Assembly: GCA_964352775.1 (NCBI GenBank)
Contig: CAYGTK010000002.1
Location: 1-60,810, forward strand
Direction of reading: 5' to 3'
DNA from: an uncultured Chitinophagaceae bacterium
GTDB lineage: Bacteria > Bacteroidota > Bacteroidia > Chitinophagales > CAIOSU01
DNA length: 60,810 nt
Shown here: piece by piece, positions 31,727 to 43,958 of the stretch
Layout: every line of letters begins with the position of its first letter
Position numbering within the stretch: the stretch's first letter is position 1
Translations under genes and position numbers: made by a program
Notes under the pieces: generated by a model
The model's database searches: none
The model's input: the letters and a program-made list of their open reading frames with translations, nothing else
What the model was told of the DNA's origin: nothing

Positions 31727-32914
31727 CTAGTACTTAGCCAAATTGGTATCCACTTCATCAGCATAAGCTAGAATACCACCCTTTAAATTGTACAGGTTTT
31801 TATATCCATGCATTTGCTCTAAAGCATTAATAGCATTAGCGCTACGCACGCCACTTCGGCAATGTACCACCACCTTTTTACTGCGGTCTATCTTTTCAGT
31901 ATTCTCCATCAAAGTGCCTAGCGGAATAAGCTCTCCTTCTAAATTAGCAATGTCATATTCGTAATCTTCACGAACATCCACTAATTGGAAATCTTCGCCG
32001 CTATCTTTTAATTGCTTTAGCTCTTGTACAGTTATTTCTTTCACGGTTTCGTCTTTTTCAGGTTCTACCTCTTCCGAGGCCATACCACAAAACTGCTCAT
32101 AATCTATCAAACCATCAATAGTTGGGTTTTCTCCAGATAGTGGATTGGTCTTATCCTTCTTGAATTTGAACGTTCTTGTCTCAAAAGTCAAGGCATCAAA
32201 AGTGAACATCCTACCTACTAAAGGGTCACCAATTCCTGTTATCACTTTAATGACCTCATTAGCTTGAAGGCTTCCTAAAATACCTGGAAGCACACCTAAT
32301 ACCCCTCCTTCGGCACAGCTTGGCACTAGCCCTGGTGGTGGTGGCTCAGGGTATAGGTCACGGTAATTGGGTCCTCTTTCTTCATTATCTATTGGGTAGT
32401 TAAATACCGTTACCTGCCCATCAAAGCGAAAAATGGAGGCATATACGTTTACCTTGCCCAACAACACACAAGCATCATTCACTAAATAGCGGGTTGGGAA
32501 ATTATCTGTTCCATCGGCCACTACATCATAACCTTTGATGATGTCTAAGGCGTTATCACTGTTCAAGTGGGTGTTGTAAGTTTTGAAGGTAACGTAGGGA
32601 TTTTGCATCTCCAGTCGTTCCTTGGCAACTTCAACCTTTGGTCGGCCCACATCTTTTACGGTGAACAGTACCTGACGTTGAAGATTACTTTCATCCACTG
32701 TATCAAAATCGACGATGCCGATAGTTCCCACCCCCGCAGCGGTAAGGTATTGCAAAAGCGGACTACCTAGGCCTCCTGTGCCTACTACTAACACCTTAGC
32801 GTTCTTCAGCTTAGTTTGCCCCTTTATATTGAATTCAGGGATGATCAAATGCCTACTATATCGCTCTAGTTCCTTCTTGGTGAACTGCTGGCTTTTTCCG
32901 TTCAACTTGCTCAT
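31727..32914 (-). CDS. moeZ: sulfur-carrier adenylyltransferase / sulfurtransferase (ThiF/MoeB E1-like domain plus C-terminal rhodanese, MoeZ-type)
   Basis: RYSRHLIIPEF, GTGGLGSP nucleotide loop, and a C-terminal rhodanese with active-site CRSGVRS. Start moved to MSKLNGK (32914), 7 nt after the stop of the upstream carrier gene. Confidence 0.85.
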   Translation of the reverse strand: MSKLNGKSQQFTKKELERYSRHLIIPEFNIKGQTKLKNAKVLVVGTGGLGSPLLQYLTAAGVGTIGIVDFDTVDESNLQRQVLFTVKDVGRPKVEVAKERLEMQNPYVTFKTYNTHLNSDNALDIIKGYDVVADGTDNFPTRYLVNDACVLLGKVNVYASIFRFDGQVTVFNYPIDNEERGPNYRDLYPEPPPPGLVPSCAEGGVLGVLPGILGSLQANEVIKVITGIGDPLVGRMFTFDALTFETRTFKFKKDKTNPLSGENPTIDGLIDYEQFCGMASEEVEPEKDETVKEITVQELKQLKDSGEDFQLVDVREDYEYDIANLEGELIPLGTLMENTEKIDRSKKVVVHCRSGVRSANAINALEQMHGYKNLYNLKGGILAYADEVDTNLAKY

Positions 32915-32921
32915 TTCCTGT

Positions 32922-33200
32922 TTAGTTTTTACCTCCAGCAATAGCTGGCACAATACTGATCACCGTTGCCTCAGCAACTTCCGTATCGCCATTCTTCAAG
33001 TCCTTAATATCATCCTCGCCTACAAATACTTTTATGAAGCTTCTTACTTTCTTGTCCTTATCAAATAGGTGATCGCTTATACCAGGGTAGGCACTGGTCA
33101 ACTGACCAATAGCTTCGCTAACTGTTCCTGCGGAAGATTCGAAAGAACGCTGTCCGTCAGTAAATTTCCGTAATGGGGTAGGTATAATAACTTTTGCCAT
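32922..33200 (-). CDS. cysO: MoaD/ThiS/CysO-family sulfur carrier protein with a GG-KN C-terminus
   Basis: 92-aa beta-grasp-like protein ending ...IVPAIAGGKN. Flanked by a JAMM protease and an E1-like enzyme. Confidence 0.7.
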   Translation of the reverse strand: MAKVIIPTPLRKFTDGQRSFESSAGTVSEAIGQLTSAYPGISDHLFDKDKKVRSFIKVFVGEDDIKDLKNGDTEVAEATVISIVPAIAGGKN

Positions 33201-33222
33201 GATGCTTAGTTTTTCGTTTTTG

Positions 33223-33678
33223 TTAATTGAATAGCTCGTTCAGATCGAGCTCTTGAGGCTCTAATATTTCTAGATCTTCTTGCTCAAATTTTCCCTTATC
33301 ATCTAACCTCCAAGAATAGATGGACGACAGCTTGCCTCTTCTAATAGAAGCAATGATATAACTGAAATAAGGTAGAGCATGCCGCAGATCGTATTCTGAA
33401 GGAATTGCTGGGTGATCAGGATGCGAGTGATACACGCCCAATAGCGTTAACCCATTTTCATCGGCATACTGTTCCGCCTTCATATAATCCAAAGCCGAGA
33501 TCTCGAATCTACGCTCGCGATTTTCATCACGGGTGTTGTTCACTTCTACAGCTTCTGTAAATACGCGTTCATTCCCTTCTTCCTGTCCGTACAAAAACCC
33601 ACAGCATTCGTGAGGGTAGGTTGTCAAGGCATCTGCTACCAGTACTTCTCTTGCTTGCGCTTCTAGTTTTATACTCAT
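33223..33678 (-). CDS. mec: JAMM/MPN+ zinc metalloprotease (Mec-like)
   Basis: HECCGFLYG (catalytic Glu region) and HSHPDHPAIPSEYD (HxHx7Sx2D) motifs, 151 aa. Confidence 0.85.
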   Translation of the reverse strand: MSIKLEAQAREVLVADALTTYPHECCGFLYGQEEGNERVFTEAVEVNNTRDENRERRFEISALDYMKAEQYADENGLTLLGVYHSHPDHPAIPSEYDLRHALPYFSYIIASIRRGKLSSIYSWRLDDKGKFEQEDLEILEPQELDLNELFN

Positions 33679-33685
33679 CGTCTTC

Positions 33686-34621
33686 TTAGTTTAATAGTTC
33701 TTTTATCACTTCGGGATAATTGCTTCCATGATCTGGGAATATAGTTACAACAACACCTTCGTCTAATTCGTTTGCCACCTTCAATGCACCCGTCAAATTT
33801 GCGGCCGATGATGGGCTCAATAGTAATCCTTCCGACAAAGCAGTTTCTTTCAAAACCTTGTAGGCCTCTTCTGAATCTACCTTCTCATTTCTATCAGCCA
33901 GTTCAGGTCGGTATATCTTCGGTACTAATGCCGTTTCCATATGCTTCCATCCTTCCAACCCGTGCATCGCTATTTCAGGATGAAGGGCTACAGAAACCAG
34001 ATCAGGCTTAGCCGCTTTCAGTCCAATAGTAGTCCCCGTAAATGTTCCAGAGGTTCCTAGCCCCGTTACAAAATGGCTTATCTGTCCATTGGTTTGTTCC
34101 AGAATTTCTTGGGCAGTAGTATTCACATGGGCCTTCCAATTATGCTCGTTGGCATATTGATCGGCATAGAAATATTTACTAGGGTCTTTCGCTACCAGTT
34201 CCTTAGCCTTTTCTTGAGCTTCATCAGAACCACCAAAGCGAGAAGTATACACAATATTCACTCCAAAGGCTCTCAAACTAGCTTTCTTCAACTCCGAAGC
34301 ATTTTCAGGAACACACAAAGTAGCAGGGATACCAAGCGCAGCTGTTATTGCGCCAAAAGCCACACCGGTATTCCCACTACTTGCATCTAATAATTCTACC
34401 CCATCGTGCAATTCACCACTTAATAAGGCTTGCTTAATGATATTATAAGCTGCCCTTGCTTTTACACTACTTCCAATTTGATGCCACTCCAGCTTAGCAT
34501 ACAGTTTTACCTTTTCTGGAAGTTCAAAACCAGTCAACTCATAAAGCGGCGTGTTACCAACGGCTTGCTCCAATTGGGCTAGCCGATTTTGCAGGATAGT
34601 ATTTAAAGTAATTACAGACAT
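33686..34621 (-). CDS. cysM: PLP-dependent cysteine synthase, CysM-like
   Basis: PLP lysine region GSSVKARAA, SSGNTG loop, GLGTSGT(F)TG glycine loop, 311 aa. Confidence 0.8.
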   Translation of the reverse strand: MSVITLNTILQNRLAQLEQAVGNTPLYELTGFELPEKVKLYAKLEWHQIGSSVKARAAYNIIKQALLSGELHDGVELLDASSGNTGVAFGAITAALGIPATLCVPENASELKKASLRAFGVNIVYTSRFGGSDEAQEKAKELVAKDPSKYFYADQYANEHNWKAHVNTTAQEILEQTNGQISHFVTGLGTSGTFTGTTIGLKAAKPDLVSVALHPEIAMHGLEGWKHMETALVPKIYRPELADRNEKVDSEEAYKVLKETALSEGLLLSPSSAANLTGALKVANELDEGVVVTIFPDHGSNYPEVIKELLN

Positions 34622-35283
34622 TAGTTAAGGCTCAATTCTTTCTTTGCTAAATAGAAGTCTACTTTTTCGTAGTCGGAAGCTATACGTTCATCAACTTCGG
34701 CAATAGTTTTTGGTGGTGGCACTACTACCTTCTCTCCTGGTTTCCAGTTTACGGGTAAGGCTACACCATTGGCATCAGCAGTTTGCAAAGCTTCTACCAC
34801 ACGTTTTACTTCATCAATATTCCGCCCCACGTTCAATGGGTAATAAATGATCGCCCTAATGATTCCTTTGGGGTCAATTACAAATACAGCGCGCACAGTT
34901 GCTGTTTGGCTTTCACCAGGATGTAACAAACCATATAGCTGTGCCACTTTAGTGTCTAAGTCTGCTATTAAAGGAAAATCAAGCAACACACCCGTATTCT
35001 CACGAACATTCTGTACCCAAGCCAAGTGGGCATGTATACTATCAATACTAACCCCTATCAACTTGGTATTCTTACCAGCAAACCAATCGCTTTCACGAGC
35101 AAACTCCACCAACTCCGTAGTACAAACGGGTGTAAAGTCAGCTGGGTGGGAAAAGAATACGATCCAACTATCCTTATTGTATTCTGAAAAATTCAGATCG
35201 CCCGTGGTAGTCACCGCTTTGAAATCTGGAGCAGCATCGCCTAGTCTGCGTATGCTGTTCGTTTGGTTTGTTTGTTCGCTCAC
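34621..35283 (-). CDS. 1-Cys peroxiredoxin (Prx6-like)
   Basis: SHPADFTPVCTTEL active-site motif, 220 aa, GTG start. Confidence 0.9.
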   Translation of the reverse strand: MSEQTNQTNSIRRLGDAAPDFKAVTTTGDLNFSEYNKDSWIVFFSHPADFTPVCTTELVEFARESDWFAGKNTKLIGVSIDSIHAHLAWVQNVRENTGVLLDFPLIADLDTKVAQLYGLLHPGESQTATVRAVFVIDPKGIIRAIIYYPLNVGRNIDEVKRVVEALQTADANGVALPVNWKPGEKVVVPPPKTIAEVDERIASDYEKVDFYLAKKELSLN

Positions 35284-35311
35284 TTCGTTTTGTTTTTGTC
35301 TTGCATTATGG

Positions 35312-35346
35312 AAATAAAAAAGGCCCCGCCGAATGGGCGGGGCCTT
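35312..35346 (-). terminator. intrinsic terminator in the prx operon leader (candidate attenuator)
   Basis: On the minus strand, a perfect 11-bp stem AAGGCCCCGCC (35346-35336) / GGCGGGGCCUU (35330-35320) with loop CAUUC, then UUUUAUUU. It ends about 35 nt upstream of the prx start. Confidence 0.8.
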
Positions 35347-35383
35347 ATATTTAGGTATCTCGTTTTATATAGAATTCACTACA

Positions 35384-35446
35384 CTATCGCCTACCAAAAT
35401 AGCCCCGCTGGTGTTGACAACAACAACAGCACATCCAAGTGGCCAT
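35384..35446 (-). promoter_or_regulatory. candidate leader peptide ORF with five consecutive Cys codons (MATWMCCCCCQHQRGYFGRR*)
   Basis: Read directly: ATG GCC ACT TGG ATG TGC TGT TGT TGT TGT CAA CAC CAG CGG GGC TAT TTT GGT AGG CGA TAG. It contains the antiterminator 5' arm GCGGGGCUAUUUUGG (35408-35394). Confidence 0.6.
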
Positions 35447-35473
35447 ATTTTGATAGTTCGTGTTCATTCCTTC

Positions 35474-35505
35474 CAAATATATAAATACAAAAGTGAGATT
35501 CGCAA
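35474..35505 (-). promoter_or_regulatory. candidate Bacteroidetes-type promoter for the leader and prx operon
   Basis: On the minus strand, TTG (35505-35503), 21 nt, then TATATTTG (35481-35474), matching the -33 TTG / -7 TAnnTTTG consensus. It lies about 30 nt upstream of the leader ATG. Confidence 0.35.
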
Positions 35506-37734: not shown

Positions 37735-38340
37735 TTATCGCTTTATTTTTGGCAGCAAAAATTGCAGCATAGCGTCAACTGACTCCTCTATACCCCATTC
37801 TGCTGTTGGTATTATAAAAGCAGGGTTTTCTGGGCGCTCAAAAGGAGCATCCAACCCCGTAAAATTCTTTATTTCTCCCGAACGGGCTTTCTTGTACAAG
37901 CCTTTCACATCACGCTTCTCACATTCCTCGAACGAAGCATCAACGAATACTTCCAGCATATTCTCCTCTCCTACTATCTCCCGCACTTGGTCGCGAATAG
38001 CATGTGTAGGGCTTACAAAACTACAAAGGGTAATTACACCCGCATCTAAAAACAACTTAGCTACCTCTGCAATTCGACGAATGTTCTCTTTACGATCTTC
38101 ATCTGAAAAGCCAAGGTTATTATTGATACCAGAGCGGATATTATCTCCGTCAAGCACTTGAACTAATAAGCCCTCGTCGTGCAATGCTTTCTCTAAACCC
38201 TTTGCAACAGTACTTTTTCCAGAACCAGACAAACCTGTGAACCAAACTACTTTAGCCTGCTGGCCTAATAGTTCTTCCTTCGCTTCACGAGGAAGTAATT
38301 GGTCAAAAATCGGGTGTATATGTTCTGGTACTGTTCCCAT
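37735..38340 (-). CDS. cysC: adenylylsulfate (APS) kinase
   Basis: FTGLSGSGKST P-loop, LDGDNIR and FVSP motifs, 201 aa. Confidence 0.9.
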   Translation of the reverse strand: MGTVPEHIHPIFDQLLPREAKEELLGQQAKVVWFTGLSGSGKSTVAKGLEKALHDEGLLVQVLDGDNIRSGINNNLGFSDEDRKENIRRIAEVAKLFLDAGVITLCSFVSPTHAIRDQVREIVGEENMLEVFVDASFEECEKRDVKGLYKKARSGEIKNFTGLDAPFERPENPAFIIPTAEWGIEESVDAMLQFLLPKIKR

Positions 38341-38378
38341 ACGGTCGGCAAAGATAATAAAAGCCCTTCTTTCTGTTA

Positions 38379-39569
38379 TCAGTTCCCCAAAGCCTTAACG
38401 GCGAGGTAAGCCATTAACCCTGAACCCGTTTGCAAGGCACTTTCATCAATATTAAATGTAGGGGTATGAACAGGCGATGTGAAGTTCCCATCTTGGCTAG
38501 CAGTGCCCAAGCGATAAAAGCATCCTGGCACATGGTGCGTATAAAAAGCAAAGTCTTCAGCGGTCATCCTTATCGGCAGATCGACCACATTTTCGGCACC
38601 TAAATATTCTTCTGCCCAAATCTTGGATCTTGGGGTCAGTTCTTCATCATTCTTTAAAAATGGATAACCCACTTTAATAGCAATATCGGCTGATCCGCCC
38701 ATACTTTTAGTTAGAGAATTAACTAGTTCTTCTATCTTTTGGTGGGCTTCTTTCCGCCACGCTTCATTAAAAGTTCGGAAGGTGCCTTCCATCTTCACCT
38801 CGCTTGGGGTGATGTTGGTGGCAGTTCCACCTTCTATTTTACCAATGGTCAATACACTTGGTATAGACGGGTTCGCATTTCTACTAACCAGTTGCTGCAA
38901 TGCAACCACTACATGGCTAGCTATTAATATGGGGTCTATATTCCTATGTGGCATAGCAGCGTGCCCACCTTTTCCCCTAATAGTTATATATACCTCATCG
39001 GCTGATGCCATATACATCCCAGAACGAAAACCTACCTTTCCCGCTGGAAGATCTGGGAATACATGTTGACCGAAAATGCTCTCAGGCTTGGGGTTTTGTA
39101 GAACGCCTTCTTCTATCATTACCGATGCGCCACCCGGTAGTTTTTCTTCTGCTGGTTGAAAGATCAGTTTAATTTTTCCTGAAAAACTTGCTCTTAATTC
39201 TTGAAGGATGTTTGCAGCACCTAACAAACTAGCTGAATGCACATCGTGACCACAAGCGTGCATTTTGCCGCTATTTTTTGAAGCGTATTCTACTTCGTTT
39301 TGCTCTAATATGGGTAATGCATCCATATCAGCTCTTAGAGCTACCACTTTATCAGAAGGTAATTCTCCCTTGATGTAGGCAACTATACCTGTTTTAGCTA
39401 CCCCTGTTTGATGCTCAACTCCCCAACTGGTGAGAAGTGCACTAATGAATTCAGAAGTATTGGTTTCTTCAAATGCTAACTCTGGATTGGCATGTATCGT
39501 TCTGCGCCAAGCTATCATATCAGCATGTAGCTTTTGGCTTAATGCCTTTATTTCAGAAGCCAGATCCAT
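38379..39569 (-). CDS. M20-family amidohydrolase (N-acyl-L-amino acid amidohydrolase / hippuricase-like)
   Basis: RRTIHANPELAFEE, MHACGHD and GGHAAMPH motifs, 396 aa. Confidence 0.85.
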   Translation of the reverse strand: MDLASEIKALSQKLHADMIAWRRTIHANPELAFEETNTSEFISALLTSWGVEHQTGVAKTGIVAYIKGELPSDKVVALRADMDALPILEQNEVEYASKNSGKMHACGHDVHSASLLGAANILQELRASFSGKIKLIFQPAEEKLPGGASVMIEEGVLQNPKPESIFGQHVFPDLPAGKVGFRSGMYMASADEVYITIRGKGGHAAMPHRNIDPILIASHVVVALQQLVSRNANPSIPSVLTIGKIEGGTATNITPSEVKMEGTFRTFNEAWRKEAHQKIEELVNSLTKSMGGSADIAIKVGYPFLKNDEELTPRSKIWAEEYLGAENVVDLPIRMTAEDFAFYTHHVPGCFYRLGTASQDGNFTSPVHTPTFNIDESALQTGSGLMAYLAVKALGN

Positions 39570-39574
39570 ACCTT

Positions 39575-39997
39575 TTATTCGTCTTCCTTATCAGGAACTA
39601 GTTCATCCATAGAAATAGACTCCCTAGTAATGAAGGCATCGGGGTAGAATTCCGAAACTTCAGTTAGTGCCTTAGTAGCCTCTAGCTTGTTACGGAAGTT
39701 ACCTATGCGCAATTTAAAATTGGGTTGTTGATACTCTATGTAGGTAGGTACATCCTTAAACTGACGATAGAATTCCGACTTAGTTTGGTATACCTGAGCG
39801 CGATTCGTAGTAGATACGATCTGTATCCTATAGCCTTTTATAGCTGCGGTTTTCTTGTTCTCCTTCTTATAATCTTCTACCAGCGTTTCAAATTCATAAG
39901 GGGCTATTACCTCTACCGAACCAGCACTAAGCGAGTCAGTTTGAGCCTGTATAGAAAAAATACTAAATAGAAAAAGGGTGAAAAAAGCGAATCTCAT
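39575..39997 (-). CDS. SPOR-domain (peptidoglycan-binding) protein
   Basis: Signal peptide, then a GYRIQI...F...P.Y..Y..P.FKLRIGNF....A SPOR-like repeat pattern. Confidence 0.6.
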   Translation of the reverse strand: MRFAFFTLFLFSIFSIQAQTDSLSAGSVEVIAPYEFETLVEDYKKENKKTAAIKGYRIQIVSTTNRAQVYQTKSEFYRQFKDVPTYIEYQQPNFKLRIGNFRNKLEATKALTEVSEFYPDAFITRESISMDELVPDKEDE

Positions 39998-40638
39998 AAC
40001 AGTAAATTTGGTCCTGAAGAAGTACCTATTCTATTTGCTCCAGCGGCCACCAATTCTTTAGCAAAGCTTGGTTCTTTAATACCTCCAGAAGCTTTAATAC
40101 CGATCTTTTTAGGTAATGCTGAACGCATCAACTCTACATGAGCTACCGTTGCGCCAGCCCCATTAAAACCAGTAGATGTCTTTACAAAATCCACCTCTAA
40201 TTCGGCACAAAGCTCACAGAGTTCCACAATTCTTTCATCACTCATTAAAGCAGTCTCAATGATAACTTTTAGCTTACCATTGAGTAGATGCACCATAGTT
40301 AGCACGGAAGAAATATCGTTCCGTACATAAGTCATATCGCCGCTTTTGATGGCTGCCATATTTACTACCATATCTATCTCTTGGGCTCCATCTTCCATGG
40401 CCTTTTTAGCCTCATCTACTTTTGACCGAGTGCCTGAATAACCCAAAGGAAAGCCAACAACCGTTACTAGTTTAACGCTGGTTTCTTCCAACTTCTTATT
40501 AGCCAGTTGAACATAATAAGGTGGCACGCAAACTCCGAAAAATTCATACTCAATAGCTTCTTCACACAGCTTATTAATATCCGCTGCAGTACAATCGGGT
40601 TTAAGTAAGGTATGTTCTATAGTCGTATTCAATGCCAT
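39994..40638 (-). CDS. deoC: deoxyribose-phosphate aldolase
   Basis: IEHTLLKP, Schiff-base lysine region DFVKTSTGF, IKASGGI; 214 aa. Confidence 0.9.
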   Translation of the reverse strand: MALNTTIEHTLLKPDCTAADINKLCEEAIEYEFFGVCVPPYYVQLANKKLEETSVKLVTVVGFPLGYSGTRSKVDEAKKAMEDGAQEIDMVVNMAAIKSGDMTYVRNDISSVLTMVHLLNGKLKVIIETALMSDERIVELCELCAELEVDFVKTSTGFNGAGATVAHVELMRSALPKKIGIKASGGIKEPSFAKELVAAGANRIGTSSGPNLLL

Positions 40639-43600
40639 TAGCCTTGTGCTTTACCGTGGCATTGTTTGTACTTCTTACCGCTACCACATGGGCATGGTTC
40701 ATTTCTTCCCACTTTTTTCTCCACCCGGACAGGCTGAGCTTTTTTAGGCTCTTGTTGCTGACCTTGTTCTCCTGATGGGCCAGTAATTCCAGGCACATCG
40801 TCTCTTCCAGCTGTCATTCGGCTCATGTCCGTTTTTTGAGGGGCTTTCGCCTCGCGCACTTGTTGAGGATCTTGCGCAGGAAGGTTTCCTTTAAATAAGA
40901 ACGATGTTACTTCACGATTTACCTCTCCAAGCATGCTCTGGAACAATGGGAACGCTTCTAACTTATAAACCAACAATGGATCTTTCTGCTCATAAACTGC
41001 TGCTTGTACAGACGTTTTCAGCTCATCCATATTACGCAAGTGTTCTTTCCAAGAATTATCGATGATACCAAGAAGAACTGCTTTCTCAAAAGAGCGAATA
41101 ACCTCATAACCACCTGACTCTAAAGCCTTCTCCAGATTGATGAGTATGTTCATCTGTTTTTTACCGTCAGAGAATGGTATGATAATATTCTTTATCGTCT
41201 CGCCTCTATTGGCATACACATCTTTAATAACGGGCATGGTCATAGTAACGATCTGATCGTTCTTGCGCTTGTAAGCTGCTTTAACTTGGTCGTAAAGCTG
41301 TTCTGTTAACTTTTGGGCTTTACCACTATTGAATTGTTCTTCAGTAATAGCTGCATCTACAGAGAAAAAGCGAATTACATCGGCTTTCAGTCCTGCATGG
41401 TCTCTAGCATCCATATGCATCTCTACTAAAGACAGGCACAGGTCGTAGAAGGTATTACTAATGTCTACCGACAAACGCTCACCAAATAAGGCGTGCTTAC
41501 GTTTTTTATAGATTTCTTCCCGCTGGATGTTCATTACATCATCAAACTCTAGTAACCGCTTACGCGTACCAAAGTGGTTTTCTTCTACCTTTTTCTGTGC
41601 TCGCTCAATGGATTTGGTTACCATCGAGTGTTGTATCACCTCACCATCTTCATAGCCCATACGATCCATTAAGCTGGCAATACGGTCTGACCCGAACAAG
41701 CGCATCAAATTGTCTTCCAAACAGACGAAGAATTGGGATGAACCCGGGTCTCCTTGACGACCAGCACGACCACGTAACTGCCTATCTACACGTCTACTCT
41801 CATGACGTTCAGAACCGATAATGGCTAAACCACCTGCGGCTTTTACTTTATCGCTTATCTTAATATCCGTACCTCTACCAGCCATGTTAGTTGCTACCGT
41901 AACGGCTCCATCACGTCCTGCCTCGGCAACTATATCGGCTTCTCTACCGTGCTGCTTTGCATTCAATACATTGTGGGGAATGTTCTTCATTTTCAGCATT
42001 CGGCCCAGTAATTCTGAAACCTCTACCGAAGTAGTACCTACTAACACTGGGCGACCAGCATCACGAAGGCTTAATACCTCCTCGATAATGGCGTTGAATT
42101 TCTCTCGCTTGGTTTTATATACCAAGTCTTGCTTATCATCACGTACAATTGGTCGGTTGGTAGGAATAACTACCACGTCCAACTTGTAGATCTCCCATAG
42201 CTCACCTGCTTCTGTTTCCGCAGTACCGGTCATACCCGATAGCTTATGGTACATACGGAAGAAGTTCTGTAGGGTAACTGTAGCAAAAGTCTGCGTAGCA
42301 GCTTCTACTTTCACATTCTCTTTAGCCTCAATAGCTTGGTGCAATCCATCCGAGTAACGGCGACCTTCCATAATACGGCCTGTATTCTCATCTACTATCT
42401 TCACCTTACCATCCATTACTACGTACTCATCTTCCTTTTGGAATAATGCGTAGGCTTTTAACAACTGCTGAATAGCATGCAAACGCTCCGACTTAACAGC
42501 GAAATCTTGCATTAGCTGATCTTTCTTCTTCACTTTCTCATCATCCAGCATGTCAGAGTTATCTATCTCTACCATTTCGGCACCTACATCAGGCATAATG
42601 AAAAAACTCGTATCCTCTCCGGCTCCAGTTATCAGCTCAATTCCTTTCTCGGTCAATTCTACCGAGTTGTTTTTCTCTTCTATCACAAAGAACAATTCCT
42701 GATCTACCACAGGCATATTCTTCGATTGCTCTTGTAGATAATAGTTCTCCGTTTTTTGAAGAACTTGTTTTACTCCACCTTCACTCAAATATTTGATAAG
42801 GGGACTATGCTTAGGCAAACCACGGTGTGCTCGTAGTAGCTTAAGTCCACCTTCTTTTTCACTGGTTTTTTTCTCGGCTATTTCTTTCTTTGCTTCAGTT
42901 AAGCTAGCTGTAACTACTTTTTTCTGTGCTTCTACTAGCTTCTGTATCCTTGGCTTTAGTTGATAGAACTCTTGCTCATCTCCACGCGGAACTGGACCCG
43001 AAATGATCAACGGGGTACGCGCGTCATCAATTAATACCGAATCCACCTCATCCACCATGGCAAAGTGCAACTTGTGCTGTACTAAGTCTTCTGGGGTACG
43101 CGACATATTATCACGCAAATAATCGAAGCCGAATTCGTTATTCGTTCCGTAAACTATATCGTTGCGGTAAGCTGTTCTTCTTTCTTCTGAATTGGGCTGA
43201 TACTTATCTATACAATCGATGGTCAATCCTAAGAATTGGAATATCGGTGCCATCCACTCGCTATCCCTACGGGCTAGGTAGTCATTCACCGTTACTATGT
43301 GCACTCCTTGACCAGATAGTCCATTCAAGTAAGCTGGCAAGGTTGCCACCAAGGTTTTACCCTCACCAGTAGCCATCTCCGCTACCTTTCCTTTGTGCAA
43401 TACGATACCACCGATCAACTGCACATCGTAATGCACCATGTTCCAATCGGTCTCCACACCAGCAGCTAGCCACTTGGTGTGGTAGTATACTTGATCTCCT
43501 TCTATCTCAATATTGTCTCTTCCTACTGATAGGTCTCTATCAAGGTCGGTTGCTTTGGCAGCCAATTTCCCATCTCCTGAAAAACGACTTGCAGTTTCTT

Positions 43601-43958
43601 TTACTACGGCAAATGCTTCTGGCAATATTTCCATCAGCACCTCTTCCAATTTCTTATCGCGGTCTTTTACTATCTCATCTATCTTCTGGTAGATCTCTTC
43701 TTTGGCATCAGGATCCATATCAGGAGCATCCTCTATAGACGCCTTTTTATCTGCTATTTCTTTATCAATAGCTTCTAAATGAGAACTAACACGAGCGCGG
43801 AACAGATCGGTCTTAGCCCTTAACTCATCATTAGAAATACCTTGAAGCTTAGCGTACTCATCGTTAACCTGCTTCACTAAAGGATACATGTCCTTTACGT
43901 CACGGTCGCTTTTGCTTCCAAATACCTTTGTTATCGTTTTCGAGATAAGATCGAACAT
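40638..43958 (-). CDS. secA: preprotein translocase ATPase SecA
   Basis: 1106 aa with DEAD-like motor motifs (MATGEGKT, VDEVDS, TNMAGRGTDI) and the C-terminal zinc finger CPCGSGKKYKQCHG. Confidence 0.97.
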   Translation of the reverse strand: MFDLISKTITKVFGSKSDRDVKDMYPLVKQVNDEYAKLQGISNDELRAKTDLFRARVSSHLEAIDKEIADKKASIEDAPDMDPDAKEEIYQKIDEIVKDRDKKLEEVLMEILPEAFAVVKETASRFSGDGKLAAKATDLDRDLSVGRDNIEIEGDQVYYHTKWLAAGVETDWNMVHYDVQLIGGIVLHKGKVAEMATGEGKTLVATLPAYLNGLSGQGVHIVTVNDYLARRDSEWMAPIFQFLGLTIDCIDKYQPNSEERRTAYRNDIVYGTNNEFGFDYLRDNMSRTPEDLVQHKLHFAMVDEVDSVLIDDARTPLIISGPVPRGDEQEFYQLKPRIQKLVEAQKKVVTASLTEAKKEIAEKKTSEKEGGLKLLRAHRGLPKHSPLIKYLSEGGVKQVLQKTENYYLQEQSKNMPVVDQELFFVIEEKNNSVELTEKGIELITGAGEDTSFFIMPDVGAEMVEIDNSDMLDDEKVKKKDQLMQDFAVKSERLHAIQQLLKAYALFQKEDEYVVMDGKVKIVDENTGRIMEGRRYSDGLHQAIEAKENVKVEAATQTFATVTLQNFFRMYHKLSGMTGTAETEAGELWEIYKLDVVVIPTNRPIVRDDKQDLVYKTKREKFNAIIEEVLSLRDAGRPVLVGTTSVEVSELLGRMLKMKNIPHNVLNAKQHGREADIVAEAGRDGAVTVATNMAGRGTDIKISDKVKAAGGLAIIGSERHESRRVDRQLRGRAGRQGDPGSSQFFVCLEDNLMRLFGSDRIASLMDRMGYEDGEVIQHSMVTKSIERAQKKVEENHFGTRKRLLEFDDVMNIQREEIYKKRKHALFGERLSVDISNTFYDLCLSLVEMHMDARDHAGLKADVIRFFSVDAAITEEQFNSGKAQKLTEQLYDQVKAAYKRKNDQIVTMTMPVIKDVYANRGETIKNIIIPFSDGKKQMNILINLEKALESGGYEVIRSFEKAVLLGIIDNSWKEHLRNMDELKTSVQAAVYEQKDPLLVYKLEAFPLFQSMLGEVNREVTSFLFKGNLPAQDPQQVREAKAPQKTDMSRMTAGRDDVPGITGPSGEQGQQQEPKKAQPVRVEKKVGRNEPCPCGSGKKYKQCHGKAQG

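Follow-up and report, generated by a model that had tools for sequence, protein, structure and literature searches.

We analysed a 60,810-nt stretch of DNA (the window) from an uncultured Chitinophagaceae bacterium (GenBank assembly GCA_964352775.1, contig CAYGTK010000002.1). The element of interest lies on the minus strand between the stop codon of cysN (35524) and the GTG start codon of a peroxiredoxin gene, prx (35283). It consists of a short open reading frame (ORF) with five consecutive Cys codons and a downstream hairpin, and had been proposed from the letters alone, in what we call the sequence-only reading, to be a cysteine attenuator. The genes cysC, cysD and cysN lie upstream of the leader and the prx operon lies downstream, all on the minus strand. 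Pfam assignments (adenosine phosphosulfate kinase/CysC, CysD, CysN, Prx, CysM, Mec, CysO and MoeZ) showed that the flanking genes had been named correctly, and whatever the sequence-only reading says about the letters was confirmed. The downstream genes are as follows.

31727..35283, minus strand: putative regulated operon prx-cysM-mec-cysO-moeZ (Pfam and gene order in relatives)
34621-35283, minus strand: prx, 1-Cys peroxiredoxin, GTG start (Pfam)
33686-34621, minus strand: cysM, pyridoxal phosphate-dependent (Pfam)
33223-33678, minus strand: mec/JAB, a JAB protease (Pfam)
32922-33200, minus strand: cysO, ThiS-like (Pfam)
31727-32953, minus strand: moeZ, ThiF-rhodanese (Pfam)

The leader ORF and the promoter-like pair ahead of it were read from the sequence; for the Cys run, relatives with a run in the same position were used as well.

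35474..35505, minus strand: promoter-like pair, TTG (35505-35503), 21 nt, then TATATTTG (35481-35474)
35384..35467 (long form) or 35384-35446 (short form), minus strand: leader-peptide ORF, ending in TAG at 35386-35384
35417..35431, minus strand: five Cys codons, TGC TGT TGT TGT TGT

The ORF that had been placed at 35446 to 35384 reads exactly as written then and translates to MATWMCCCCCQHQRGYFGRR before the stop codon. An in-frame ATG at 35467 gives a longer peptide that begins with MNTNYQNMATWMCCCCC and reads MNTNYQNMATWMCCCCCQHQRGYFGRR over its whole length; the frame of the Cys run is identical from either start. The leader of a relative described below (L001, first unit) starts with MNTNF. 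For this reason we favour the long form, whose ATG at 35467 may be the real start. The promoter-like pair reported upstream of the leader ATG is present at 35505-35474, and its TTG-21 nt-TATATTTG arrangement fits the Bacteroidota -33/-7 consensus. A scan for sigma-70-type promoters lists a site at 35505-35476, and among 47 related leaders, 18 have an exact TAnnTTTG box ahead of them. Because the -7-like box ends only 6 nt before ATG 35467, a leaderless or near-leaderless transcript is possible. Bacteroidota are largely without Shine-Dalgarno-led initiation.

Runs of at least four Cys codons were sought in all six frames of the window, and this was the only one. At this base composition (G+C fraction 0.424), 60.8 kb would be expected to contain ≈ 0.003 five-Cys runs. 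The leader (161 nt) also folds better than 200 of 200 dinucleotide shuffles (z = -4.3). Its structural elements are listed below.

35441..35456, minus strand: possible region 1, CUAUCAAAAUAUGGCC, pairing with region 2 (minimum free energy (MFE) and centroid structures; duplex -16.3 kcal/mol)
35394..35408, minus strand: region 2, antiterminator 5' strand GCGGGGCUAUUUUGG, within the leader ORF (folds; co-varying strand in relatives)
35337..35355, minus strand: region 3, antiterminator 3' strand CCUAAAUAuaagGCCCCGC, overlapping the terminator 5' arm (folds)
35312..35346, minus strand: intrinsic terminator, 11-bp stem (35346-35336 with 35330-35320), loop CAUUC, U-tract 35319-35312 (terminator scan and fold)

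The terminator scan returned the hairpin of the sequence-only reading with 11 pairs, nine of them G-C, and a folding energy of -23.6 kcal/mol. Its arms, AAGGCCCCGCC (35346-35336) and GGCGGGGCCUU (35330-35320), are followed by UUUUAUUU, and its end is 36 nt from the prx GTG. The prx start region lies outside the hairpin, which does not pair with it. The 5' arm has an alternative partner inside the leader ORF, where GCGGGGC (35408-35402) begins 8 nt past the last of the five Cys codons and stops 15 nt short of the TAG, spacings that agree with those given earlier. With the terminator 3' arm blocked or untranscribed, RNAfold paired GCGGGGCUAUUUUGG with CCUAAAUA-uaag-GCCCCGC (35355-35337), the same helix that had been drawn by eye. 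In silico, the two helices are mutually exclusive. Pairing of region 1 with region 2 appeared in the ribosome-free full-length fold, in both the MFE and the centroid structures, and region 1 is thus a possible anti-antiterminator in these models. The antiterminator (2:3, -26.3 kcal/mol), the terminator (3:4, -24.1 kcal/mol) and the 1:2 structure (-25.1 kcal/mol) differ little in energy, which is what a switch would require.

When transcripts were folded naked, the antiterminator was missing from some of the MFE structures, since an ORF that is not being translated pairs with itself. We therefore turned to footprint-masked folds, in which a ribosome covers positions -18 to +12 relative to its A site and the transcript ends before the terminator 3' arm. 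With the ribosome on any of Cys codons 1-4 of the window leader, eight of the 11 nt of the terminator 5' arm were captured, by positions 35408-35401. This number fell to six of 11 with the ribosome on Cys codon 5 and to zero of 11 with the ribosome at the stop codon.

To look for relatives, we scanned with the Prx protein, taking one genome per species, and obtained 80 loci. The five closest (L001, L003, L004, L005 and L006) come from metagenome-assembled genomes (MAGs) of Flavobacteriales, a Saprospiraceae MAG and a MAG labelled Chryseobacterium. In all five, four to six Cys codons in a row lie on the prx strand, 140-180 nt ahead of the gene; they belong to a short ORF with four to seven Cys codons, after which come a G+C-rich hairpin and a U-tract, 41-66 nt before prx. 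No Cys run in leader position was seen in the other 75 loci fetched through Prx. Leader and terminator precede all three Bacteroidota prx-cysM-mec-cysO-moeZ loci in this set (L001, L003 and L005, the gene order of L005 being checked as far as its contig extends), and in L004 and L006 they precede a stand-alone prx. These leaders have almost no primary sequence in common, which indicates that the architecture is what is kept.

A metagenome scan with CysM yielded 80 further loci at 47-60% identity. Counts were based on 53 low- or mid-GC loci with sufficient upstream sequence and on 24 high-GC loci. A Cys-rich short leader ORF was found in 46 of the 53, and an intrinsic terminator 17-66 nt before cysM in 41 of these 46; as in the window, the hairpin in the 41 is G+C-rich with a run of five to eight U directly after it. 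None of the 24 high-GC cysM loci had a Cys leader. The run keeps its position across relatives and varies in length from two to eight Cys codons. The gene order after the leader is that of the window operon in L001, L003 and L005, and the same order without prx in most of the CysM-derived loci (L081-L135). The element is associated exclusively with cysteine and sulfur-assimilation genes. The closest CysM relatives of the window are 62-63% identical, none above 63%, and the named close homologs are all from Bacteroidota (Flammeovirgaceae, Microscillaceae, Fulvivirgaceae and Chitinophagales), which marks the source of the window as a divergent lineage within this phylum.

These counts bear on an alternative already raised by the sequence-only reading, namely that the hairpin does no more than end cysCDN transcripts as their Rho-independent terminator, that the Cys run is a chance occurrence in an untranslated spacer, and that prx-cysM has its own unregulated promoter. 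It is true that there is no other terminator between the cysN stop codon (35524) and the hairpin. However, the leader, the strand within its ORF and the terminator recur together in dozens of loci, and near these leaders, whether ahead of cysM or of prx, no cysC, cysD or cysN homologs were detected, so that the hairpin is not simply a cysN terminator. Neither a sigma-70-type nor a TAnnTTTG promoter-like site was found in 35320-35283, a five-Cys run is hardly expected by chance in the window (see above), and the covariance model described below matches far more than the hairpin. We reject this explanation as highly improbable.

Past the Cys run, the ORF of every unit repeats the sequence of the terminator 3' arm found in the same unit. 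The copy begins ∼ 18-20 nt past the Cys run in the main family and 8 nt past it in the window. The terminator and in-ORF strands change together: CTCCACC/GGTGGAG in the main family, CCTTTCC/GGAAAGG in a small subgroup, CTCCGCC/GGCGGAG in L127, CCTTTCTC/GAGAAAGG in L003 and GCCCCGC/GCGGGGC in the window. Were GCGGGGC to be mutated, the compensating partners would be GCCCCGC together with GGCGGGGC.

For quantification, 38 non-redundant metagenome units were aligned with MAFFT (alignment A1). The terminator helix was 92.9% paired, with compensatory changes at six of 11 pairs. The antiterminator helix was 79.9% paired versus 43-62% when the partner was slid along the sequence, and its covariation score was above that of 500 of 500 shuffles. 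The sequence-only reading had staked itself on a conserved Cys-run ORF and a conserved alternative pairing in relatives, and both were found, the former in the 46 of 53 cysM loci mentioned above. In A1 the small CCTTTCC subgroup is placed two columns out of register by MAFFT, and the antiterminator result holds regardless. RNAalifold on A1 returned the terminator alone. In a test for perfect complements, 24 of 46 non-redundant units were individually significant (p < 0.05); this test is crude, as it allows neither G-U pairs nor bulges, and the case rests on the type-matched covariation and the alignment counts. Outside the switching elements, conservation was poor.

The coding properties of the in-ORF strand are informative as to what is selected. 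GTGGAG is used in all three reading frames (17, 10 and one units), where it encodes VE, GG or W; this points to selection on the RNA and not on the peptide, and the apparent conservation of the peptide C-terminus follows from the RNA motif. One could otherwise suppose that the short ORF encodes a functional Cys-rich peptide, either metal- or redox-active or the precursor of a modified peptide, with the RNA structures being incidental. The peptides are indeed consistently Cys-rich, and within some sub-families their C-termini are similar, but GTGGAG accounts for those C-terminal residues. Apart from the Cys run, peptides of different sub-families cannot be aligned, Cys codons vary in number as described, and no peptide-modification genes were identified among the annotated neighbours. 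A peptide function of this sort is barely credible.

We then used A1 (38 metagenome leaders, the window left out) to build a covariance model, R1. It gave one full-length match in the window:

35314..35439, minus strand: full-length R1 match, 61.9 bits, E ≈ 5e-12, model positions 1-121 of 121

The next match on the same strand of the window scored 20.7 bits and covered the terminator only. R1 also recovered three leaders missed by the filter on Cys-codon number (L095, L082 and L126) and a tandem copy in L001. Across ∼ 1 Mb of control loci (Prx-only and high-GC), no match exceeded 27.5 bits except in L143, which is a member of the training alignment, and in L146, which is an identical copy of L143. 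L105 scored 32.7 bits but has a single Cys codon in its short ORF; we took it as a terminator-driven or degenerate match. An R1 copy (46.5 bits) was found in a cultured strain, Fulvivirgaceae bacterium BMA12 (GCA_030442055.1). Its leader reads MYKSFLCCCCNCCCLRYHGGKDNYIR, ending at a stop codon, and GTGGAAAGG within the ORF stands opposite the terminator arm CCTTTCCAC.

The footprint simulation was extended to 46 units. With a stalled ribosome, a mean fraction of 0.64 of the terminator 5' arm was captured. Moving the ribosome to the stop codon lowered the fraction to 0.26 (p = 7e-7), and shuffling the middle segment lowered it to 0.44 (p = 8e-6).

The sequence elements, the fold models and the comparison with relatives together make it very probable, in our judgement, that the element is a classical ribosome-mediated leader-peptide transcription attenuator sensing charged tRNA-Cys. 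The leader and both helices are conserved in relatives, as the Cys-codon attenuator of the sequence-only reading predicted, and the architecture is absent from the control loci. Transcription would start at the promoter-like site near 35474-35505 or read in from cysCDN, and the leader ORF would be translated while RNA polymerase proceeds. When Cys-tRNA(Cys) is scarce, the ribosome would stall on one of the first four Cys codons, with its footprint ending before 35408. Region 2 (GCGGGGCUAUUUUGG) would then be free and would pair with region 3 (CCUAAAUA...GCCCCGC) once the latter is made; the 2:3 helix would tie up the terminator 5' arm, and polymerase would read through into prx-cysM-mec-cysO-moeZ. 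When Cys-tRNA is plentiful, the ribosome would reach the TAG (35386-35384) and cover or unwind region 2. With region 2 blocked, the 11-bp terminator would form and transcription would end at the U-tract 36 nt before prx. Translation of the leader, its coupling to transcription and a response of read-through to the cysteine supply are what we infer from this model.

Several observations weigh against this model. A ribosome with the TAG in its A site would cover UAUUUUGG, as the sequence-only reading had supposed for the whole antiterminator arm, but would reach only 0-3 nt of the GCGGGGC core. Termination under cysteine-replete conditions would therefore depend in part on the terminator outcompeting a weakened antiterminator. 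When the simulation was repeated with another 5' end, arm capture at the stop codon still amounted to a fraction of 0.36. In the simulation of the family, 14 of the 46 units captured less than 0.6 of the arm in the stalled state. Without a ribosome, the antiterminator can often still form (mean of the family 0.53, window 0.82). A strict trp-like 1:2 helix, which would give 'superattenuation', is present in the MFE structure of the window but is not general, the ribosome-free value of 0.53 being intermediate; we do not claim it for the family. The units in A1 are metagenome contigs of uncertain relatedness, and the covariation counts therefore include inherited changes. Finally, the hairpin of the window probably also ends the cysCDN transcript; in this genome it may be both an operon terminator and a conditional gate.

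A poly-Cys upstream ORF (uORF) might also act mainly post-transcriptionally, the stalled ribosome reshaping the RNA so as to affect translation initiation or mRNA stability of the genes downstream, with the hairpin as a structural or stabilizing element and not a conditional terminator. Mycobacterial poly-Cys short ORFs do act in such a way, by unmasking a ribosome-binding site (bioRxiv 10.1101/834739), and five of our loci (L092, L093, L110, L113 and L115) have a Cys-run uORF without a canonical terminator, so that forms of the system lacking one do occur. Yet the window and 41 of 46 loci have the G+C-rich hairpin with five to eight U directly after it; this hairpin ends 17-66 nt before the start codon without pairing with the start region, and the competing helix is aimed specifically at the terminator 5' arm. 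We regard post-transcriptional action as unlikely. Less likely still is that the terminated leader serves also, or mainly, as a trans-acting small RNA, like rnTrpL of Sinorhizobium. Termination would yield a stable RNA of ∼ 130-150 nt with a hairpin at its end, and such a role has been described for trp attenuators (PMC7298713; bioRxiv 10.1101/606483). On the other hand, nothing was found that points to targets, and outside the switching elements the sequence is poorly conserved.

In the terminator-less loci, the Cys runs (L092 ∼ 3820, L093 ∼ 510, L110 ∼ 3819, L113 ∼ 1974 and L115 ∼ 3838) comprise six to eight Cys codons at the extreme end of the uORF, and L110, L113 and L115 have two hairpins with a common repeated GTTACCGG element. 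Sequestration of the start codon was considered for this subgroup and rejected, as the cysM ATG is 130-143 nt downstream in L093, L110, L113 and L115.

Other variants were seen among the relatives. Two complete units of leader and terminator occur in tandem in L001 (5678-5958), L003 (5599-5933) and L005 (984-1277) and also in L086 and L097, with the same operon downstream; neither the Cys run nor the matched antiterminator strand is shared between the units. A distance of ∼ 3 kb separates the leader from the cysM downstream of it in L090, L098 and L099. The region 910-3923 of L098 contains the leader, a sulfite reductase gene (NIR_SIR, 703 aa) and a siroheme-type/tetrapyrrole methylase gene, and then cysM-mec-cysO-moeZ. 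These distal leaders indicate that the element gates operons of differing composition. L095 (3862-3975) has two Cys codons only (…PACCIQQ…), but its RNA architecture is complete and its R1 score is 53 bits. In L120, where the leader is upstream of a cysM at 304, GTGGAG is replaced by GTAGAG and the antiterminator is lost in the footprint simulation; on this modelling, L120 could be a naturally down-regulated or decaying copy.

In two Flavobacteriales MAGs (L004 5838-6657 and L006 5841-6657), the Cys leader and terminator are followed by a lone 1-Cys peroxiredoxin gene. The gene after prx in L004 is a convergent one for a 2-oxoacid dehydrogenase E2. The position of a lone prx behind a Cys leader hints at a thiol or redox link to the leader device. 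We speculate that oxidized cysteine pools might lower the charging of Cys-tRNA and so induce the peroxiredoxin.

Turning back to the window, the space from the terminator to prx contains an 8-codon uORF (ATG CAA GAC AAA AAC AAA ACG AAG TGA, 35280-35306, minus strand). The TGA of this uORF shares nucleotides with the GTG start codon of prx (GTGA, 35283-35280), an overlap that could couple termination on the uORF to initiation at prx. This uORF is not present in L001. Further upstream, at 38340-43958 on the minus strand, are genes for an M20 peptidase, a SPOR-domain protein and a DeoC-type aldolase and an ORF of 1106 aa; cysC-cysD-cysN comes after these four on the same strand with short gaps. 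Neither a Cys leader nor any other recognisable regulatory element was found ahead of cysC in the window.

Whether the window element belongs to an undescribed, phylum-wide set of Bacteroidota Cys leaders that controls the CysO/CysM route, in the form of single, tandem and terminator-less units, is in our view an evenly balanced question. If the attenuator model is correct, the CysO/CysM sulfur-carrier route is under the control of tRNA-Cys charging, in some genomes together with sulfite reductase and the 1-Cys peroxiredoxin, and cysteine synthesis in a large and ecologically important phylum would have a regulatory mechanism. It would also indicate that these genes of Bacteroidota make up a pathway to cysteine of which the co-transcribed peroxiredoxin is functionally a part. 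The three-way covariation between the terminator 5' arm, its 3' arm and the in-ORF strand provides a ready seed alignment for an Rfam-type family, and a family model would allow better annotation of many short 'hypothetical' ORFs. Since the element is present in at least one cultured strain, the prediction is directly testable.

We compared the element with known systems, starting with Rfam 15 (4227 models). At gathering thresholds there was no match, to a riboswitch or to a leader family, in the window, including the gap singled out by the sequence-only reading, or in 20 related loci. The best sub-threshold scores in the window were 19-26 bits versus thresholds of 41-65; those of the Thr, Phe, Leu and Trp leader models (19-25 bits versus 41-55) were terminator-driven. 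The element resembles the classical leaders of Proteobacteria (trpL, hisL, leuL, thrL, pheL and ilvL) in having a short ORF with a run of codons for the pathway's own amino acid, an antiterminator 5' strand that follows these codons closely on their 3' side, an intrinsic terminator ahead of the structural genes, and a logic based on ribosome position. It differs from them in that cysteine would be sensed, in its host phylum with little Shine-Dalgarno-led initiation, in lacking any sequence or covariance-model relationship, and in that a trp-style 1:2 helix is not established in the Bacteroidota Cys leaders. In Bacteroidetes, the Bacteroid-trp leader motif likewise belongs to the leader-peptide attenuators.

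Cys-codon leaders without terminators were predicted earlier in Actinobacteria (Seliverstov et al. 2005, PMC1262725). The mycobacterial poly-Cys leaderless short ORFs were later described as a 'Cys ribulon' (Canestrari et al. 2020, bioRxiv 10.1101/834739 / Mol Microbiol 114:93). The locus studied in detail in Mycobacterium smegmatis acts by unmasking of the ribosome-binding site, that is, by translational control (bioRxiv 10.1101/834739), and a later paper also treats the mycobacterial Cys leaders as translation attenuation (PMC13236596). This is the only cysteine-sensing uORF system of the kind with experimental proof. It shares with ours a poly-Cys uORF upstream of cysteine-metabolism operons and stalling at Cys codons as the signal. 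However, the mycobacterial leaders are without an intrinsic terminator (PMC1262725), begin leaderless transcripts, belong to another phylum and have no sequence similarity to ours; unlike these terminator-free, ribosome-binding-site-sequestering leaders, the window has a canonical terminator with the prx start 36 nt beyond it.

The uORFC-8-2 motif upstream of cysS in Rhodobacterales is a predicted attenuator (Brewer et al. 2021, PMC8632094). Here the likeness is in the tandem Cys codons, the intrinsic terminator and the ribosome-mediated mechanism (PMC8632094). It differs in having two Cys codons inside the first stem, in controlling the gene of cysteinyl-tRNA synthetase and not cysteine biosynthesis, and in being restricted to alpha-proteobacteria; it stands as a prediction only, and the window, as noted, has no Rfam match. 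For Flavobacterium psychrophilum, which belongs to the same phylum, a transcriptome study gives 'strong clues' for leader-peptide attenuation upstream of amino-acid biosynthesis operons, its main text containing no Cys-specific element or cysM/cysO operon (PMC9723704). Flavobacterial leader-peptide attenuation is mentioned only generally (PMC9723704; compare PMC7366714).

In line with the remark in the sequence-only reading that it knew of no curated Cys-codon leader family for Bacteroidota, we found none in Rfam 15 or in the searchable literature (subscription papers and supplementary tables aside), and the searchable literature likewise held no earlier account of RNA-level control of cysM-mec-cysO-moeZ in this phylum. 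Cys-codon attenuators as such are already known outside Bacteroidota, and the mechanism is of a well-known kind and not surprising in itself. What appears to be undescribed is a terminator-type Cys attenuator on cysteine-biosynthesis operons that is widespread in Bacteroidota. If our model is correct, it would be the first cysteine-specific classical terminator-type attenuator ahead of cysteine-biosynthesis genes. Earlier cysteine-sensing uORFs are translational in mycobacteria (proven) or precede cysS in Rhodobacterales (predicted); with the Bacteroidota leaders, cysteine would join the amino acids sensed by leader-peptide attenuators of the classical terminator type.

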